This document shows, piece after piece, positions 2,925-11,242 of a stretch of 11,243 nt of DNA. Position numbers and translations under genes: made by a program. Each line of letters opens with the position of its first letter. Positions within the stretch are counted from its first letter, which is position 1. The DNA comes from a virus. The stretch lies in the IMG/VR virus record IMGVR_UViG_3300045988_173323; one strand, 5' to 3'. The notes under the pieces are model-generated. The model saw only the letters and a program-made list of their open reading frames with translations. It did not search any database and was not told the origin of the DNA.

Positions 2925-2953
2925 TTGAAAAAGTATAAAAAATATGTTATAAT
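2925..2953 (+). promoter_or_regulatory. Sigma-A-type promoter (TTGAAA, 17 bp, TATAAT) for the plus-strand operon 2988..4311.
   Basis: TTGAAA at 2925-2930 and TATAAT at 2948-2953 with an exact 17-bp spacer. It is back-to-back with the divergent minus promoter. Confidence 0.6.
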
Positions 2954-2987
2954 ATTTAATATAAACAAGAGAAAAGAGGACACGGGA

Positions 2988-3164
2988 TTGACAAGAGAAG
3001 AATTAAGTGCGGAATTGGGTATAAGTGAGAATAGAATATTACGTCACTGGCGGGAAGTGTGTAATAGCTATGAGCGGATTGGGATTAAGTTGATTAAAAG
3101 AGGGAAGGGAAAAAACGCGGAGTATGGTATTTTAAAAAAAGACGAGACTGTAGCAAGATTTTAG
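2988..3164 (+). CDS. Small helix-turn-helix DNA-binding protein (about 59 aa) with a probable TTG start. Candidate regulator of the divergent operon.
   Basis: The track ORF begins at TTG 2925, which is itself the -35 of the promoter. In frame, TTG 2988 is preceded by AAAGAGGA at 7-nt spacing. The product MTREELSAELGISENRILRHWRE... has an HTH-like segment. Confidence 0.55.
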   Translation: MTREELSAELGISENRILRHWREVCNSYERIGIKLIKRGKGKNAEYGILKKDETVARF

Positions 3165-3174
3165 AGGAGAATAT

Positions 3175-3444
3175 ATGATAACGGTTGAGAATATTACAAA
3201 TGGAACTGTAAATACATATAGCAATTTTGGTTGCAATCACATAAATATAGAACAAAATAAAAAAGAAGGTTGGGGAATATGTAAATATCTCGTTTCTGGA
3301 GAATTGTGTTTGTGCGGCAAGGAGAAGATTTTAATGAAAGATATTGGTAATAATTGTACTAGATGTCTTTCATATGAACCAGAACCAGAAGAAGAAGAAG
3401 AGGAAGATTTTGACGCGGATGAAGCTGACTATGAAGATCTTTAA
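3175..3444 (+). CDS. Cys-rich small protein with a highly acidic C-terminal tail.
   Basis: 89 aa. RBS GGAGaatatATG. Six Cys (C20, C36, C45, C47, C61, C64 in GCNH...C...CLC...CTRC). Tail EPEPEEEEEEDFDADEADYEDL. Confidence 0.7.
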   Translation: MITVENITNGTVNTYSNFGCNHINIEQNKKEGWGICKYLVSGELCLCGKEKILMKDIGNNCTRCLSYEPEPEEEEEEDFDADEADYEDL

Positions 3445-3595
3445 AGTGAGAATTGCCGCGTTATAAAAAAAATAGAGGATTTTTTTTGGAGAGAATTTTA
3501 AGATAAGAGGATAATATGACGAGAAAAGTTTAGCTGTTTTGTTAAAAGACGAATTAAAAAGCTCTAATCGTTAAGAAAAAATTTAACAAAAGGTG

Positions 3596-3649
3596 TTGAA
3601 AAAGTGTACAAACCAATGATTTGTTGAAATTTTTAAGCAAATGTTGAAA
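3596..3649 (+). promoter_or_regulatory. Three direct TGTTGAAA repeats upstream of gene 3694..4311. Candidate operator or promoter-element array.
   Basis: TTGAAA at 3596-3601, 3624-3629 and 3644-3649, in contexts gtgTTGAAAaag, ttgTTGAAAttt and atgTTGAAAata. No well-spaced -10 partner is found, so a regulatory-site role is preferred over a plain promoter. Confidence 0.35.
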
Positions 3650-3693
3650 ATATTTTAAGTATAAATTTTATGTTTAAATATAAGGAGGGAAAT

Positions 3694-4311
3694 ATGGAAA
3701 TTCAAAAAAATTCAAGGCAAATACCTAGTAATAAAATTTATACTGCTAACAAGAAGTATTCAGATATTCTATATGGATATTTACAACATAATTCTCTTTT
3801 AGACAAAGAGTGCGGAATTAGGTATATACTTAAAAAAGATATTAGCTTCGTAAAAATTGCTAATGAATTAAAGATGCATAGACAAACAGTTTCAAATAAA
3901 TTTAAAGTTTTGATAGAACAAAATTTGATTAGATACAATGAAGAATTAAAAAGATATGAATTAGTTACTATTGATAAAACATTAGCAACTTTATTGCCAG
4001 ATGAAACAGTTAGGATTTGTTATAACACTTTGCAAGATAGATGTTTAAGTATATTGGCTTATTTATTAAAAACTTATATTCAACATAATGAATCTTCTTG
4101 TCAAATAAATTTAGATGTTATAAAAGAATATGTTGGAATTTGTGTTTCAAATAGAGGGTGTAATAATCAGGTTATAAAGGATAGTCTTTTAATATTGCAA
4201 AAGTTAGGTTTTATTCAGTACCATACAGAAAGAAAATTAGATGAGGAAACAGGTGGTATAAGAACTATTTATATTTTAGATAAAGTGTATAATTTTGTTA
4301 CTTTTGATTAA
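3694..4311 (+). CDS. HTH-containing DNA-binding protein (205 aa). Function is undetermined: regulator, or possibly a replication/initiator-type protein.
   Basis: Start moved to ATG 3694 (TAAGGAGGgaaatATG). Track start 3670 has no SD. HTH-like segment: IANELKMHRQTVSNKFKVLIEQNLI. Confidence 0.8.
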   Translation: MEIQKNSRQIPSNKIYTANKKYSDILYGYLQHNSLLDKECGIRYILKKDISFVKIANELKMHRQTVSNKFKVLIEQNLIRYNEELKRYELVTIDKTLATLLPDETVRICYNTLQDRCLSILAYLLKTYIQHNESSCQINLDVIKEYVGICVSNRGCNNQVIKDSLLILQKLGFIQYHTERKLDEETGGIRTIYILDKVYNFVTFD

Positions 4312-4341
4312 AAGATATAGTAAATAAAATACTAAGTAAAA

Positions 4342-4498
4342 TTGCAAAATGTCGAAAAAGTGTAACACAATATAATAGTAGAAGTAATTTCATTACTTCG
4401 TATTCAAGCACTTCGTGCTTTCATACTCGTAATGAAATTACTTCTTAGCCGCCGATAATTTTGCAAAATGTCGAAAAAGTGTAACACAATATAATAGT
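4342..4498. repeat. 38-bp exact direct repeat (4342-4379 and 4461-4498) flanking a 66-bp inverted-repeat element (4380-4445).
   Basis: DR is ttgcaaaatgtcgaaaaagtgtaacacaatataatagt. Each copy carries TGTCGAA at 4350-4356 / 4469-4475 and a TATAAT. The element between them has 17-bp perfect outer arms (agaagtaatttcattac / gtaatgaaattacttct) and an inner gcac-ttc-gtgc hairpin. Confidence 0.8.
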
Positions 4499-4570
4499 GG
4501 TATTAAAATTATACCAGAAATATTATATTATATATTATACATAACTATTATATAATAATAATAATAATAT

Positions 4571-4607
4571 AGGTAATGTATCATACCGAAGGTATGATAC
4601 ATTACCT
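4571..4607. repeat. Perfect palindrome or hairpin (17-bp stem, 3-nt loop) preceded by an (ATA)n run.
   Basis: aggtaatgtatcatacc-gaa-ggtatgatacattacct. No flanking T-run on either strand, so not a canonical terminator. Confidence 0.75.
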
Positions 4608-4619
4608 TAGTGTAAATTA

Positions 4620-5400
4620 AAATGAAGAGTTTTATGCGGGGTGGGGTATTTAGTAGTTGAATCCGCTTTGTTTTAGAGGGACTCTTGTTTAATTTTAAAA
4701 TGTCAAGGAACGTTTTAAAAAATGATTTGAAAATTTTAAGGTTTAAGTAAATTAGGAAAGTTTTTCGGAAGGCATGAGAAAAAGTAAGAAAAGAAGTATG
4801 GTATATTTAGAGAATGGCAAAGAATATTACTGAATAATAACAAAGAGTTAGAGAGTTTTGTTAAAAACGAGTTATGGTTTTTTGGTTAGAAAAGTGTGGA
4901 AGAGGGTATTTAAATTATAAGAGAAGTATGGGAGTGCGGAATTGAATTTAATTAAAGTGCTTCCGCATTTAAAAAGCAAGGTTAAATAAAAATTGCGGGT
5001 TACAGAATTGCTTAAATAAAATTATTAAAATTTTGCGTGAGGAGTTTGATTTTGGAGAGAATTAAGGGTAGCTTTAATAAAATATAAAGATTGGATTAAA
5101 GGTGCGTAAGGTTAAGATAATAAAATATTTTAGAATTAGAGGGAATTGAGGATAGGTTAGCAAAAATAATAAGACTGAGCAAAGAGAATTTAATGTTTGG
5201 GTTAAGAGAAAGTATAAGTTAGATTAAGAGAGAAGAAGGTTGAAGTATATAAAATAATAAGCGGAAGTGAGGATTTTGAGATTGGGTTAAGAGAGGAGTG
5301 AGATTAGAGTGAGAGAGCGTAGAATTGGAGTGTAGAGAGGATGAGAGTGAGGCGTGAGTGGAGAAAGGATAGAGCGAGGCTGAAAAAATGCGAGAAAAAG
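4620..5400 (+). other. About 780-bp strand-asymmetric non-coding tract. The + strand is purine-rich and nearly C-free (roughly 35 C, about 4-5%).
   Basis: I counted C per 60-nt line; nearly every line has 1-4, and 4921-4980 has 6. No ORF of credible composition exists on either strand. GAG/GTGAG-rich degenerate repeats occur, e.g. gggttaagaga twice and GAGGAnTTTGAnnTTGG twice. It lies between convergent genes. Confidence 0.7.
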
Positions 5401-5403
5401 GTG

Positions 5404-5441
5404 AAAAAAATTGTGAGAGTGAAGTGCTCAGCCTCACTCTC
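5404..5441 (-). terminator. Rho-independent terminator for gene 5463..5858.
   Basis: Stem gagagtga (5415-5422) pairs with tcactctc (5434-5441). On the minus strand it is followed by T7 (plus aaaaaaa 5404-5410). It lies 22 bp past stop 5463. Confidence 0.65.
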
Positions 5442-5934: not shown

Positions 5935-6175
5935 AGGGGAAGACATCTTTCTAGCTATTGTTGGGCTTAATTAGTTTCCAAAAATTTTAAATGAGATAAG
6001 GCTCGACGTAAAAATGGAAGGCGGAAAATAAAAATGGCTTTTTTTACTATTGTATCATATATTTTGTTAAAAATCAAGCGGAGAGAGGTGAGGTATGTTG
6101 AAATTGCGGGATTCTAGAGTAGTGATTCAAAATTCCAAACATCTAGCGAAAAAGCCCATATGGACGATCTTTGGG

Positions 6176-6241
6176 GTAGGTCGGATCCGAGTCCTTTGAA
6201 CTCGGACCGCTGATTATATCACAGCCGCCGCGTTTTGTCAA
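6176..6241 (-). promoter_or_regulatory. Consensus promoter (TTGACA, 17 bp, TGaTATAAT) whose transcript starts directly with an AGCGG-plus-hairpin element.
   Basis: -35 is plus 6236-6241 and -10 is plus 6213-6218, with an exact 17-bp spacer. Downstream on the minus strand: cagcggtccgagttcaaaggactcggatccgacc (stem ccgagt/actcgg). It reads toward 5463..5858, about 350 nt away. Confidence 0.55.
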
Positions 6242-6293
6242 TAGGCAAATTATATAAATTTTTCATTATTTTTTTAGTAATATTGCACAAAAA

Positions 6294-6523: not shown

Positions 6524-6919
6524 TTACTCCTCTACAGCTTCCTCTTCCTCTTTTGCAAGAGAGAAATAAGGAACTCTTTTTTCAACTGTTCTAACTACCT
6601 CTCCAGATTCGATAAGCTGTTTAAGAAGAGCCGATAATTTCTGAGAAGAAAGTTTACTCATTTCAGAGTTTTCCTTAATCATGGTTGAAACTGTAACAGG
6701 TTTATCAAATAACTCCAAAGCTACAAGAATAAGTTTTTTGACTTCCTCATTTTCTTTCTGGTTTTTGGTTTTTTTACCGCTGGAAGATTTTTTATTCAAC
6801 AGCTCGATTTCATGTCTGAGAAAGTTAAGTGCTTCTTCTTTTGGTTCAAAGCTACTTTCTTCCAGAAAAGCACTGATAGTTTCAAACCAATCTTTTTTTG
6901 TCATTTTGTCTTTCATCAT
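6524..6919 (-). CDS. Small acidic-tailed protein with a conserved C-terminal winged-helix-like domain (family A, copy 1), about 131 aa.
   Basis: Start set at ATG 6919 (GAGGTaatgaatATG, 7-nt spacing). It is paralogous to 9103..9510, with a near-identical C-terminal half PVTVSTMIKENSEMSKLSSQKLSALLKQLIESGEVVRTVEKRVPYFSLAKEEEE. Confidence 0.8.
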   Translation of the reverse strand: MMKDKMTKKDWFETISAFLEESSFEPKEEALNFLRHEIELLNKKSSSGKKTKNQKENEEVKKLILVALELFDKPVTVSTMIKENSEMSKLSSQKLSALLKQLIESGEVVRTVEKRVPYFSLAKEEEEAVEE

Positions 6920-6952
6920 ATTCATTACCTCTTTCTTTCTTTTGATATATTT

Positions 6953-8559: not shown

Positions 8560-8760
8560 TTGTCTATTTTGACTATTGACAAGTTTAGCATTGTGCATAA
8601 CAGAGAAAATTGGCGAATTTTGATATAAATTTTTGTTCATTTTACCTATTGACAAAGAATTTTGTGCAAAACAGAGAATTTTGGGATAAAAAATTTTTTA
8701 TTTTTGTGCATTTTTTCTCTTGACAAAATTGTTAGCGTGTGATATAATGGATATTTCGGT
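8560..8760. repeat. Three tandem degenerate units of about 60-70 bp. Each has a TTGACA followed by a TTGTGCA(a/t)AACAGAGAA-type box. Only the last unit retains a consensus -10.
   Basis: ctaTTGACAagtttagcattgtgcataacagagaaaattgg; cctaTTGACAaagaattttgtgcaaaacagagaattttgg; ctcTTGACAaaattgttagcgtgtgaTATAATgg. Confidence 0.6.
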
Positions 8761-8813
8761 CGCCTTGATCCAAGGCGACCCGCTATTATATCACACTTTC
8801 GGGTGCTTGTCAA
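8720..8813. promoter_or_regulatory. Face-to-face (convergent) consensus promoters on opposite strands, flanking a nested palindrome.
   Basis: Plus: TTGACA 8720-8725, 17 bp, TATAAT 8743-8748. Minus: -35 at plus 8808-8813, -10 at plus 8785-8790, 17-bp spacer. Between them: gtgtgatataat..ggtcgcc-ttgatccaa-ggcgacc..attatatcacac. Confidence 0.6.
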
Positions 8814-9024
8814 TAGGCAAAATAAACAAAATTAAAAAATTTTTGAGCATTATCTTTGTTACATTTTCACAAAATTATAGACTGGAACTCTTTGTGCAAC
8901 AATACCAAAATTATAAAAATTTTTTAGCTATTTTTTGTAATTTATGTACATTGACTTTTTTGTTCTCTGGTATTTTTGAATAAAAAACATCCCTCCAGCA
9001 GCGGATTTTTTGTGCAAAAAGTAG

Positions 9025-9072
9025 AAAAAAAAATGCACAAAAAGGAGGACGGATTTTGTGCAATCCGCCCTC
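9025..9072 (-). terminator. Rho-independent terminator for 9103..9510.
   Basis: Stem gaggacggat (9045-9054) pairs with atccgccctc (9063-9072). It is perfect with one G-U wobble in minus-strand RNA. The minus-strand downstream is cuuuuugugcauuuuuuuuu. Confidence 0.6.
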
Positions 9073-9102
9073 TTGACAAGGTTTATAAGTTACTTTTTAG
9101 TT

Positions 9103-9510
9103 TTACTCTTCTTCCTCAACTTCTTCTTCTTTTGCAAGAGAAAAGTAAGGAACTCTTTTTTCAACTGTCCTGACCACTTTGCCTGCCTCAATCATTTTTT
9201 TCAACAGTGCAGATAACTTCTGAGAAGAAAGCTTACTCATTTCGGCGTTCTCTTTAATCATTGTAGTTACCGTGACAGGTTTACCAAACAGCTCTAAGGC
9301 AATTCCAATAAGTTCCATAAGCTCCTCATTTTCTTTAATGTGAGCTGTTTTCTTTTTGCCTGGTGCTGAAGATTTCTTATTTAACAGTTCAATCTCGTGA
9401 TTGATGAAGTCAAGTGTTTCTATTTTTTTGTCAAAGTTTTCGGTTTTTTCTACGATGCCAACCAGCAGTTTGAAAAAGTCTTTTTTTGTCATTTTTGTTG
9501 TGTTTGTCAT
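9103..9510 (-). CDS. Family A copy 2: small acidic-tailed protein with a winged-helix-like C-terminal domain (135 aa).
   Basis: RBS AAGAGGAatttaattATG. The C-terminal half is nearly identical to the 6524..6919 product. Tail EEEVEEEE. Confidence 0.8.
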   Translation of the reverse strand: MTNTTKMTKKDFFKLLVGIVEKTENFDKKIETLDFINHEIELLNKKSSAPGKKKTAHIKENEELMELIGIALELFGKPVTVTTMIKENAEMSKLSSQKLSALLKKMIEAGKVVRTVEKRVPYFSLAKEEEVEEEE

Positions 9511-9555
9511 AATTAAATTCCTCTTTTCTTTCTTTAAAAATTTTTTTGGTGGCTT

Positions 9556-9651
9556 GCGGTCGGTGGTCGATTTTGCCGACCAACCAAACCGCTGAAATTA
9601 TTTACTACTTTGTTACAATACTATTGTACTACTTCTTTTTACTTTTGTCAA
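9556..9651 (-). promoter_or_regulatory. Consensus promoter (TTGACA, 17 bp, TACAAT) with a structured 5' leader (CAGCGG plus hairpin) for 9103..9510.
   Basis: -35 is plus 9646-9651 and -10 is plus 9623-9628. Leader on the minus strand: attgtaacaa...cagcggtttggttggtcggcaaaatcgaccaccgaccgc. The promoter overlaps the 3' end of 9629..9922. Confidence 0.55.
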
Positions 9652-9922
9652 GCACTTTTTTTATTTTTTTTTGTTCCCACAAAACTACTTGAGTCATAGG
9701 CTTGTTATTTTCAATCCAAGCAAGGGAAAAAGCTACGATGTTAAAAGGATGCTCAAGAAATTCGATATAATCAATATCAAATTCAAAATCCCATTCTTTT
9801 TGATAAGATTCTAACAAGCTATTGATAGCGTTATAGCTATAAGTATAACTATAACTATCACTGTCCCAAAAACCTGCTTTTATTAAGTCATCTTCTAAAC
9901 GATTTAAAATTTTTTCTAACAT
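9629..9922 (-). CDS. Family B copy 2 (GFWDS motif), about 97 aa.
   Basis: Start at ATG 9922 (GAAGGTGAtaataATG). The track start 9937 lacks an SD. No separate promoter is seen, so it is probably co-transcribed with 10000..10374. Confidence 0.7.
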   Translation of the reverse strand: MLEKILNRLEDDLIKAGFWDSDSYSYTYSYNAINSLLESYQKEWDFEFDIDYIEFLEHPFNIVAFSLAWIENNKPMTQVVLWEQKKIKKVLDKSKKK

Positions 9923-10374: not shown

Positions 10375-10422
10375 GTTACATCACATCCTTTTTAAAATTT
10401 ACTATTAACTTGTTACAATGGT

Positions 10423-10451
10423 ATTATATCGCACCTTAGCTTAAAAGTCAA
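10423..10451 (-). promoter_or_regulatory. Consensus promoter (TTGACT, 17 bp, TATAAT). Part of a 52-bp exact repeat that also occurs at 11191-11243.
   Basis: -10 is plus 10423-10428 and -35 is plus 10446-10451. The -35 overlaps the TGA stop of the upstream gene. Leader contains ATTGTAACAA. Confidence 0.65.
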
Positions 10452-11158
10452 GCATTTTCGTGTAATTCTTTTCTTTTTTTCTGCGGCAGTCTCCAACATG
10501 ACGGCTTAATACTTCTATCCATTTTTTTATGCTGGTCAAAACATTTTTTCATAATTTCAATTTCAATTTTTACATCTTCTAAACCTGTATGAGATTCTAC
10601 AAAATCAATATTCTTTTTAATATATTTATAGCATACCTCAGCGTTAGTTAAAAGATTGCCTTTTTCAGACTCAAATCCGTTTTTCTCAGCAAATTTGATA
10701 TAGGTGTTTGTACTTAAAATCATCTGGCAAGCCATATTCCAAATACAAAAATATTCTGTGCCATAAGGGAAAAACCAGCGAATAAAACTTTTGCTATGGT
10801 ATCTAATAGCATTGTTTAATGCTTTTCTATCAAAATTCATATTGTAAGCACCAACTTTTTTCACATTATATTCTTTCATGTCTGCAAACATCTGTTTTCT
10901 AATATTGAAGATGCTTTTCATGGTTCTTTTTCCGCTTTTTAAATCATCCCAATATTTTGGGATTTTTTTAGCGTAGTAGGCACTATTCATAGCTTCTTTC
11001 AAGTCAATAAATGTCTCAGCGACTACAAAGCTTCTTTCGGTGACAATGTTACCGTGTCTATCTGCAATAGCATAACCAATATCATAAGGGATTGGCTCAT
11101 TTACACTATTCGCAGTTTCTGTATCCAATACCATGAAAAACTCTTTTCTTCTACTCAT
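10448..11158 (-). CDS. DEDDh-family 3'-5' exonuclease (DnaQ/RNase T-like), about 236 aa.
   Basis: Exo I MVLDTETA. Exo II YNMNFDRKAL. Exo III ESHTGLEDV. Start at ATG 11158 (GAGGAaatcaaaaATG); the track TTG start at 11173 is unlikely. Confidence 0.8.
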   Translation of the reverse strand: MSRRKEFFMVLDTETANSVNEPIPYDIGYAIADRHGNIVTERSFVVAETFIDLKEAMNSAYYAKKIPKYWDDLKSGKRTMKSIFNIRKQMFADMKEYNVKKVGAYNMNFDRKALNNAIRYHSKSFIRWFFPYGTEYFCIWNMACQMILSTNTYIKFAEKNGFESEKGNLLTNAEVCYKYIKKNIDFVESHTGLEDVKIEIEIMKKCFDQHKKMDRSIKPSCWRLPQKKRKELHENA

Positions 11159-11213
11159 TTTTGATTTCCTCAACTTTCATTTATTTTTTTTACTATTAAC
11201 TTGTTACAATGGT

Positions 11214-11242
11214 ATTATATCGCACCTTAGCTTAAAAGTCAA
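11214..11242 (-). promoter_or_regulatory. Consensus promoter (TTGACT, 17 bp, TATAAT) for the exonuclease gene. Second copy of the 52-bp repeat.
   Basis: Identical to 10400-10452. -10 is plus 11214-11219 and -35 is plus 11237-11242. Confidence 0.65.

Follow-up and report, generated by a model that had tools for sequence, protein, structure and literature searches.

What do the promoter-proximal hairpins of this phage DNA have in common, and what would they do? The window, by which we mean the whole 11,243-nt stretch analysed (IMG/VR record IMGVR_UViG_3300045988_173323), holds three loci, L1, L2 and L3, at which a minus-strand promoter is followed by a GC-rich hairpin. A preliminary description had read them as three copies of one leader motif, AGCGG followed by a hairpin whose 5' arm begins GGTC(G/C), acting either as an mRNA stabiliser or as a recognition site for an antitermination factor. 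The letters themselves were found as described: on the minus strand AGCGG was present at 6207-6211, 8780-8784 and 9589-9593, GGTC(G/C) was present at 6204, 8776 and 9577, the three promoters were confirmed with the scores given in Table 1, and GC-rich hairpins were confirmed at all three loci with z of -3.2 to -5.1 on that strand. The motif did not survive, since its two elements overlapped each other and the stem, AGCGG being part of the stem foot in L1 and L3.

GC content across the window was 29.6%. Each small minus-strand gene was preceded by a near-consensus promoter (TTGACA, 17 nt, TGnTATAAT), and six promoters matched 12/12 consensus positions in the promoter scan of the window. Almost none of the window proteins had a Pfam match. 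The 241-aa ORF at 10448-11173 matched phrog_20187 (E 4.8e-60) and was approximately 45% identical to proteins of 134-142 kb Enterococcus phages and approximately 30% identical to one in phAss-1, whose clade uses genetic code 15 and has a predicted Clostridia host (PMC10607447). Three IMG/VR contigs of 80-97 kb encoded proteins 96-98% identical to those of the window; other contigs were more distant (52-70%). No match was obtained by megablast of the window against plasmids and phages. The phage relatives and the small promoter-headed minus-strand genes indicated that the window is a phage early region; judged by protein similarity, its source is a large, uncultured Firmicutes/Clostridia phage and a relative of the phAss-1 group. 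An early assumption of Herelleviridae membership was dropped, the relatives being phAss-1-like large siphoviruses. Elsewhere in the window, three unusual features were grouped at 4337-4506, 4571-4607 and 4620-5440: a pair of 51-nt direct repeats (90% identity), a perfect AT-rich hairpin of 17 bp and a purine-rich G/A tract about 800 nt long. Close-relative contigs end within this 4337-5440 region, which may represent an origin, the end of the genome or a break in the assembly.

At L1, L2 and L3 alike, non-coding sequence reached 60% GC or more over 30 nt; the remaining islands at this threshold lay inside the 5463-5858 gene and in the purine-rich tract near 5351. Of the 45-nt windows on the minus strand, 22 folded at -18 kcal/mol or lower, compared with 0 in 5 dinucleotide shuffles. 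The folding energies were -17.4 kcal/mol for L1 (z -3.2), -18.3 kcal/mol for the minus strand of L2 (z -5.1), -17.8 kcal/mol for its plus strand (z -5.7) and -21.7 kcal/mol for L3 (z -4.2). The three hairpins are real, and their stability is far beyond chance. Their stems and loops were mutually unrelated. All three were without a U-tract, and none was called in the terminator scan of the window. Rfam searches of the window (E up to 1) and of 10 related loci gave no relevant match. Two covariance models of a cassette family (R1 and R2, described below) matched the window only at L2, on the plus strand (R1: 24 bits, E 5e-4; R2: 34.3 bits, E 2e-6), and gave no match at L1 or L3 at E up to 5-10, showing that the three loci are three configurations and not copies of one motif.

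Table 1. Features at the three hairpin loci, in coordinates of the 11,243-nt window.
Feature	Position	Strand	Description
Conserved non-coding segment 3' of L1 hairpin	6095..6181	-	C-rich linker, CCATATGGGC mini-palindrome, T-run, CGCTAG, AATCCCGCAATT
L1 hairpin	6182..6209	-	CGGTCCGAGT-loop-ACTCGGA(T)CCG; begins 3 nt past -10 box
L1 promoter	6213..6241	-	12/12 consensus; TTGACA, 17 nt, TGnTATAAT; TG extension; class features: GC-rich spacer, GCCTA 5' of -35 box
TTGTGCA box 5' of L1 promoter	6284..6290	-	From box search
Eight TTGTGCA boxes around L2	8537..9062	both	From box search
L2 plus-strand promoter	8720..8748	+	12/12 consensus with TG extension; antisense to early genes; faces the minus-strand promoter
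L2 cassette core	8749..8792	+	Initial transcribed GGAUAUUU, hairpin, CCGCU; matched by covariance model
L2 palindrome	8758..8780	both	GGTCGCCTTG-GAT-CAAGGCGACC; equal folding on both strands
L2 minus-strand promoter	8785..8813	-	12/12 consensus with TG extension; gene-sense; GCCTA 5' of it
135-aa gene under L3 leader	9103..9510	-	Paralogue of 6524-6925; no Pfam match
L3 hairpin	9556..9592	-	GCGG-U-UUGG-U-UGGUCG [loop] CGACCA-CCGA-CCGC; in 5' UTR of 135-aa gene
ATTGTAACAA box	9610..9619	-	Exact; between L3 promoter and hairpin
L3 promoter	9623..9651	-	TTGACA, 17 nt, TACAAT; 11/12 consensus

L2 had been read from its minus strand. The promoter on that strand is indeed perfect and its stem begins 3 nt past the -10 box, but the plus-strand promoter had been missed, and plus is the strand conserved in the family: the context of the plus-strand promoter, GGATATTT-CGG[stem], corresponds to the family consensus. 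The two -10 boxes of L2 are 36 bp apart, so the polymerase footprints must overlap. No plausible ORF was found in the L2 transcripts over about 300 nt. TTGTGCA boxes occurred nine times in the window against 1.33 expected, a count reached in 0/200 shuffles; eight were at L2 and one was 5' of L1. Degenerate copies of the plus-strand promoter, at about 8574 and 8647, lay within the stretch that holds the eight boxes. Three plus-strand TTGACAA units approximately 72 nt apart were seen in 8574-8748, and the last (8720-8748) alone had a -10 box, the other two resembling antisense-promoter duplicates that have decayed. Based on its model match and flanks, L2 belongs to a widespread, apparently undescribed family of phage promoter-hairpin cassettes.

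L1 has orthologues in the related contigs L009, L033 and L046, all of them non-coding loci with a promoter, then a hairpin, then conserved blocks in the order CCCATATGGGC, T-run, CGCTAG and AATCCCGMAATT. Alignment of five loci revealed invariant blocks in the segment 3' of the L1 hairpin. In the three orthologues the position of the hairpin was kept and the stems were entirely different. The L009 orthologue reads TATACT-TGCA-GGAGCGTCT... and lacks AGCGG, so the conservation claimed for AGCGG was not borne out; the family keeps only a CGG...CCG foot, and the L1 stem foot is likewise CGG paired with CCG. The L1 transcript contained no plausible ORF over about 300-340 nt. With no plausible ORF in either transcript, neither L1 nor L2 yields a simple mRNA leader. 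A weak terminator-like fold, GUCCAUAUGGGC-U5, was seen 3' of the L1 hairpin. By alignment, L1 is the head of a separate conserved non-coding locus.

The L3 hairpin has a 13-bp interrupted stem with GCGG/CCGC paired at its foot. It begins approximately 23 nt from the predicted 5' end and so is not 5'-terminal. It was kept only in the near-identical contigs L001-L003, with one U.G to C-G change and a loop insertion. The ribosome-binding site lies approximately 40 nt past the hairpin, and no terminator was found between the hairpin and its gene. L3 lacks the features of the hairpin-promoter class described below, having an AT-rich spacer and, instead of them, the ATTGTAACAA box. This box had been reported as common to the L3 and 10423-10451 leaders, and it was recovered exactly in both (at 10410-10419 in the latter) and also at 11201-11210. 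It has a TTGTnACAA palindrome as its core and occupies +2 to +11 of three promoters (9623-9651, 10423-10451 and 11214-11242); a 55-nt unit of promoter plus box is repeated identically. It is a likely operator, unrelated to the hairpin cassettes. The 133-aa (6524-6925) and 135-aa proteins, both candidates for a regulator acting at the TTGTGCA and ATTGTAACAA boxes, are encoded by paralogues with 76% DNA identity over 234 nt; neither matched Pfam, and both have a winged-helix-looking C-terminus with an acidic tail at the end. HTH proteins are encoded at 2925-4311.

In related loci, many consensus promoters directly abutted long GC-rich hairpins of unrelated stem sequence. The flank was of the type TATAAT-RGS-CGG[stem] on the gene strand and TATAAT-RGAAWTTT-CGG[stem] on the opposite strand, and one hairpin was often flanked by both promoter types. 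The RGAAWTTT element was missing from L1 and L3. Stems were 10-14 bp long and began 3 nt from the -10 box in gene-sense promoters and 8-9 nt from it in antisense promoters; the CGG...CCG foot was the sole sequence that recurred across them. Over all loci, 141/581 distinct promoters had a hairpin of -14 kcal/mol or lower within 60 nt. A MAFFT alignment of 27 cassettes was set aside because it mixed three pairing registers, and R1 was therefore seeded from six gap-free cassettes, on contigs unrelated to the window, and realigned with Infernal. R2 is a broader model; both models comprise RGAAWUUU, a stem closed by the CGG...CCG foot and a 3' flank that is A-rich or CCGMC. R1 detected 70 sites in cassette-bearing loci, giving a family of at least 70 instances in uncultured phAss-1-related gut phages, and 0 sites in the SPO1 terminal repeat, Enterococcus phage H1, Enterocloster phage PMBT24 and ten chance pattern-match loci. 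In the R1 alignment, which is fitted to the model and so somewhat favours the structure in these figures, 94.6% of cells were paired compared with 73% in shuffles, both-side changes occurred at 8/9 pairs, and the covariation score was 0.449 compared with 0.098 ± 0.013 in shuffled alignments (0/500 reached it) and at most 0.081 in slid controls. The covariance check proposed in the preliminary description gave strong covariation within the L2 family, whose models did not match L1 or L3.

An exact scan of IMG/VR with the pattern TATAATRGAAWTTTCGG gave 54 matches. When a proper -35 box was present, a GC hairpin followed immediately in 31/32; it was also present in two matches cut by a contig end. 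None of the 20 uncut matches without a -35 box had an abutting GC hairpin. In a similar scan of species-representative genomes 9/11 matches were true cassettes; all lay on contigs of MAGs, most of which had been binned as Eubacteriales, Lachnospiraceae or Clostridia. Face-to-face cassettes were present in phAss-1, which alone was recovered by distant blastn with cassettes as the query, and the cassette was absent from the cultured Enterococcus phage H1, Enterocloster phage PMBT24 and SPO1, so that these offered no system for experiments on it. Literature searches on Herelleviridae transcriptomes, SPO1 host takeover and convergent promoters turned up no description of it. A solitary CRISPR repeat or RNA anti-CRISPR was set aside on form, the 10-14 bp stems being all different and their ends not repeat-like. 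In phAss-1 (OQ749652, L065), a 'hypothetical protein' CDS at 8932-9876 begins inside the face-to-face cassette 8948-9038, and its gene start is probably wrong.

Promoters followed by such hairpins differed from the others in more than the hairpin. The GC content of their spacers was 48-50%, compared with 27% in other promoters, and a TTGTnYA box lay 5' of the -35 box in 59-64% compared with 7%. The L1 and L2 promoters had the features of this group, with a GC-rich spacer, a TTGTGCA-type box upstream and GCCTA before the -35 box. By these features the hairpin promoters are a distinct class, suggesting separate regulation, and the TTGTGCA box is a likely candidate for the binding site of a regulator. 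In L005, L009 and L010 a hairpin was found at 12/14 antisense promoters but at only 6/48 sense promoters. Where the coding strand could be judged, 23 cassettes had a downstream gene on the opposite strand and 6 had one on the same strand. The few cassettes that head mRNAs (L3, L041 and L046) had the order hairpin, A-run, ribosome-binding site, and in a recurrent sense variant the promoter was followed at once by a hairpin and T-run. A second hairpin came next in 30/39 antisense-type units. An A-run preceded it in 15/30 of these; read along the gene strand, such a hairpin has the form of a terminator for the upstream gene, which is convergent. In the antisense direction only 2/30 had a T-rich tail, and antisense transcripts therefore probably reach into the upstream gene.

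The stems showed no strand preference. G.U pairs made up 3.5% on one strand versus 4.0% on the other in one comparison and 5.2% versus 3.4% in another, and this asymmetry test identified no transcribed strand for the cassettes. By contrast, the control of 289 terminator-like hairpins from the same loci was asymmetric, with 7.7% G.U on the transcribed strand versus 2.5% on the reverse, and 164 folding better forward versus 72 in reverse. Both strands of the palindrome are therefore kept able to pair, and the rare, symmetric G.U pairs give a stem that does not look optimised for a single RNA strand. In one face-to-face cassette a 30-nt GC hairpin was exactly inverted between L002:3246-3275 and L003:3239-3268 with identical flanks, showing that loop sequence and hairpin polarity are dispensable; L001 holds a shortened form of this hairpin. 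Comparison with close relatives (L006-L008) revealed whole small genes deleted or relocated, with breakpoints at promoter cassettes. Cassettes of promoter plus ribosome-binding site were also repeated within the window (6916-7005/7198-7287, 91%; 10398-10452/11189-11243, 100%), flanking small ORFan genes. By these comparisons the window region is hyperplastic, with modular shuffling like that at the promoter/stem-loop elements (PeSLs) of T4-type phages.

The reading that we favour, and hold tentatively at somewhat less than even chances, is that RNAs from these promoters start at the stem foot and carry a protective 5' hairpin, the palindrome probably serving also as a barrier to transcripts from the opposite side. 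We infer the transcription starts from promoter position, and RNA stabilisation and barrier activity are likewise our interpretation. Host RNA polymerase would start at the sigma-A consensus promoters 0 to approximately 3 nt from the foot of a stable hairpin, so that the RNA would have a hairpin at its 5' end from the outset. The fixed offsets from the -10 boxes predict a start at the stem foot in both orientations; a start approximately 7 nt past the -10 box would leave 0-3 unpaired 5' nucleotides before the hairpin, and the geometry of L1 and L2 predicts a stem-loop approximately 0-4 nt from the RNA 5' end. Such a hairpin would impede decay that depends on the RNA 5' end (RppH, RNase J1, RNase Y) and so make the RNA more stable. 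L2 would be the canonical cassette, with two face-to-face promoters and one palindrome yielding two non-coding RNAs capped by 5' hairpins, each running through the opposite promoter. L1 would be the same device heading a separately conserved non-coding RNA, and L3 an internal leader version that blocks 5'-to-3' trimming upstream of the 135-aa gene. The near-pure Watson-Crick stems on both strands suggest that the palindrome is probably also a barrier hairpin for opposite-side transcripts, and the strand-symmetric stems, adjoining terminators and face-to-face promoters together point to a barrier or insulator role. Stem-loops at the 5' end are established RNA stabilisers in Bacillus, as in aprE and ermC (PMC7509114).

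The fixed offset from the -10 box, the family covariation, the fixed hairpin position in the L1 orthologues, with different stems, and the cassettes that head mRNAs count for a 5' hairpin. Counting against it are the non-coding RNAs, antisense to early genes, that most cassettes produce; the conservation of the RGAAWTTT initial transcribed sequence and the TTGTGCA box beyond the need of a simple 5' cap; the internal position of the L3 hairpin; and the strand-symmetric G.U pairs. The placement of the L1 and L2 hairpins at the very 5' end, as described earlier, agrees with predicted starts from promoter geometry but not with simple mRNA leaders. The mRNA-stabiliser idea fared similarly: by analogy the geometry would match known 5' stem-loops (the B. 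subtilis aprE leader, ermC constructs and E. coli ompA) in having a hairpin near the predicted 5' end and, past L3, a ribosome-binding site, whereas L1, L2 and most cassettes appear to head non-coding or antisense RNAs and their stems are strand-symmetric.

With roughly one chance in four, the palindrome and an opposing strong promoter form a boundary of the T4 PeSL type that stops or attenuates read-through from early units, by a hairpin barrier plus head-on polymerase occupancy, the RNA 5' hairpin being incidental. This would account for the second hairpins adjoining antisense-type units, half of them with the A-run signature of a convergent-gene terminator, for the symmetry of the Watson-Crick stems, for the sense variant with a T-run, for the overlapping footprints at L2 and for the shuffling breakpoints at promoter cassettes; PeSLs are likewise found in hyperplastic early regions and pair a strong sigma-70 promoter with a GC stem-loop (PMC2839356). 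However, L1, L2 and L3 lack the U-tract of a terminator, a barrier would not need its stem at a set distance (3 nt or 8-9 nt) from the -10 box, the stem-loop of a PeSL lies upstream of or over the promoter and not past the -10 box, and some cassettes head mRNAs. PeSLs (PMC2839356, PMC4122927) are, by analogy, the closest described relative of the cassette: both fuse a strong host-type early promoter to a GC-rich stem-loop, occur in many copies among small ORFan early genes of a hyperplastic region and coincide with gene shuffling at junctions. They differ in that the PeSL stem-loop sits over the -10 box or between it and the -35 box and terminates upstream co-directional transcription, whereas the cassette stem sits 3 or 8-9 nt past the -10 box, and L1, L2 and L3 were absent from the terminator scan. 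Unlike PeSLs, cassettes are usually antisense or between two face-to-face promoters, conserve an initial transcribed sequence, have a TTGTGCA box upstream and belong to another phage lineage and host phylum. Intrinsic terminators differ as well, L1, L2 and L3 having no immediate U-tract and the cassette stems having symmetric G.U pairs.

The combination of face-to-face super-consensus promoters, a palindrome, the conserved RGAAWTTT, a GC spacer and the TTGTGCA box might, at about the same one-in-four chance, constitute a distinct and undescribed bidirectional cassette that yields 5'-hairpin-capped antisense RNAs, insulates or shuts off early units, is controlled by a dedicated phage DNA-binding protein and is widespread in alternative-code phAss-1-like gut phages.

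It is unlikely that antisense control is the main purpose, with RNAs complementary to the 3' ends of early mRNAs timing early shut-off through RNase III cutting or convergent interference, and with the two RNAs of face-to-face pairs overlapping perfectly. The strong bias of hairpins to antisense promoters and of downstream genes to the opposite strand fits this, as do the lack of ORFs downstream of the L1 and L2 promoters, the scarcity of T-tailed downstream hairpins in the antisense direction and the separate promoter class with its TTGTGCA box. On the other hand, cassette and early promoters match one consensus and thus give no sign of a temporal order, the promoters of L1 and L3 are gene-sense, and the hairpin itself is left unexplained. 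The RNase III sites of SP82/SPO1 are also GC-rich hairpins between early genes of a large Firmicute phage, and hairpins of this kind were indeed seen in SPO1, but they are irregular hairpins of approximately 20 bp between early cistrons, longer than the 10-14 bp cassette stems, mutually similar and not abutting a promoter. The face-to-face switches of coliphage 186 (pR/pL) and P2 (Pe/Pc) share strong convergent promoters close enough to interfere; the cassettes differ from them in the 36-bp distance, the palindrome between the promoters and the several pairs per genome, and no divergent lytic and lysogenic operons were evident at cassettes.

A role at the level of DNA, as a cruciform or single-stranded hairpin serving as a recombination hot-spot, replication priming site or target of a structure-specific protein, is improbable. 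The near-perfect symmetric stems, unlike the terminators of the same loci, the exact inversion between L002 and L003 and the hyperplastic region would suit it. Convergent transcription causes positive supercoiling between promoters, which disfavours a cruciform; furthermore, the tight register with the -10 box points to a role in transcription, and the many copies per genome argue against a replication origin.

A shared nut/put-like recognition site, as in the earlier proposal, is not supported, and least probable of all is its extension to a nut-, put- or qut-like recognition or pause site, at which a conserved RGAAAUUU-CGG and a generic hairpin would load an antiterminator or induce a sigma-dependent pause: in its favour are an initial transcribed sequence conserved past the needs of pairing, the weak terminator-like fold past the L1 hairpin, GAAATT resembling a -10 box (A at position 2, T at position 6) and followed by GC, which we take to be the arrangement of the lambda PR' pause inducer, and the general likeness to lambda nut (boxA + boxB) and HK022 put, in which a short linear element precedes a promoter-proximal RNA hairpin, but AGCGG is unconserved, the cassettes have no common loop or stem sequence, stems and loops vary among copies of one genome with one loop flipped, RGAAWTTT is missing from L1 and L3, L3 has no terminator to override, the many copies are mostly antisense, and no Rfam family matched.

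If the cassette works as proposed under the favoured 5'-hairpin reading, it would be a compact, portable device that unites a promoter with a built-in 5' cap for the RNA and a barrier acting in both directions, and possibly an expression or insulation part for Firmicutes. Early transcription in a large group of uncultured gut phages would then be organised by repeated cassettes, and dozens of unannotated GC islands would be explained, at least one of them buried under a predicted phAss-1 CDS. The cassettes would also provide a simple sequence signature for locating early regions and non-coding RNAs in such phages, and would extend the PeSL idea of promoter/stem-loop cassettes that drive shuffling from T4-type phages to an unrelated lineage.

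Two further observations were made in the related genomes. At L010:6419-6700 a promoter is followed by approximately 230 nt of GC-rich, apparently structured non-coding sequence and a terminator; this unit faces a hairpin cassette and had no Rfam match. In Enterocloster phage PMBT24 (L066), the gene at 9612-12107 is annotated as an 831-aa 'RNA-dependent RNA polymerase' and may instead encode a YonO or crAss-type single-subunit RNA polymerase.
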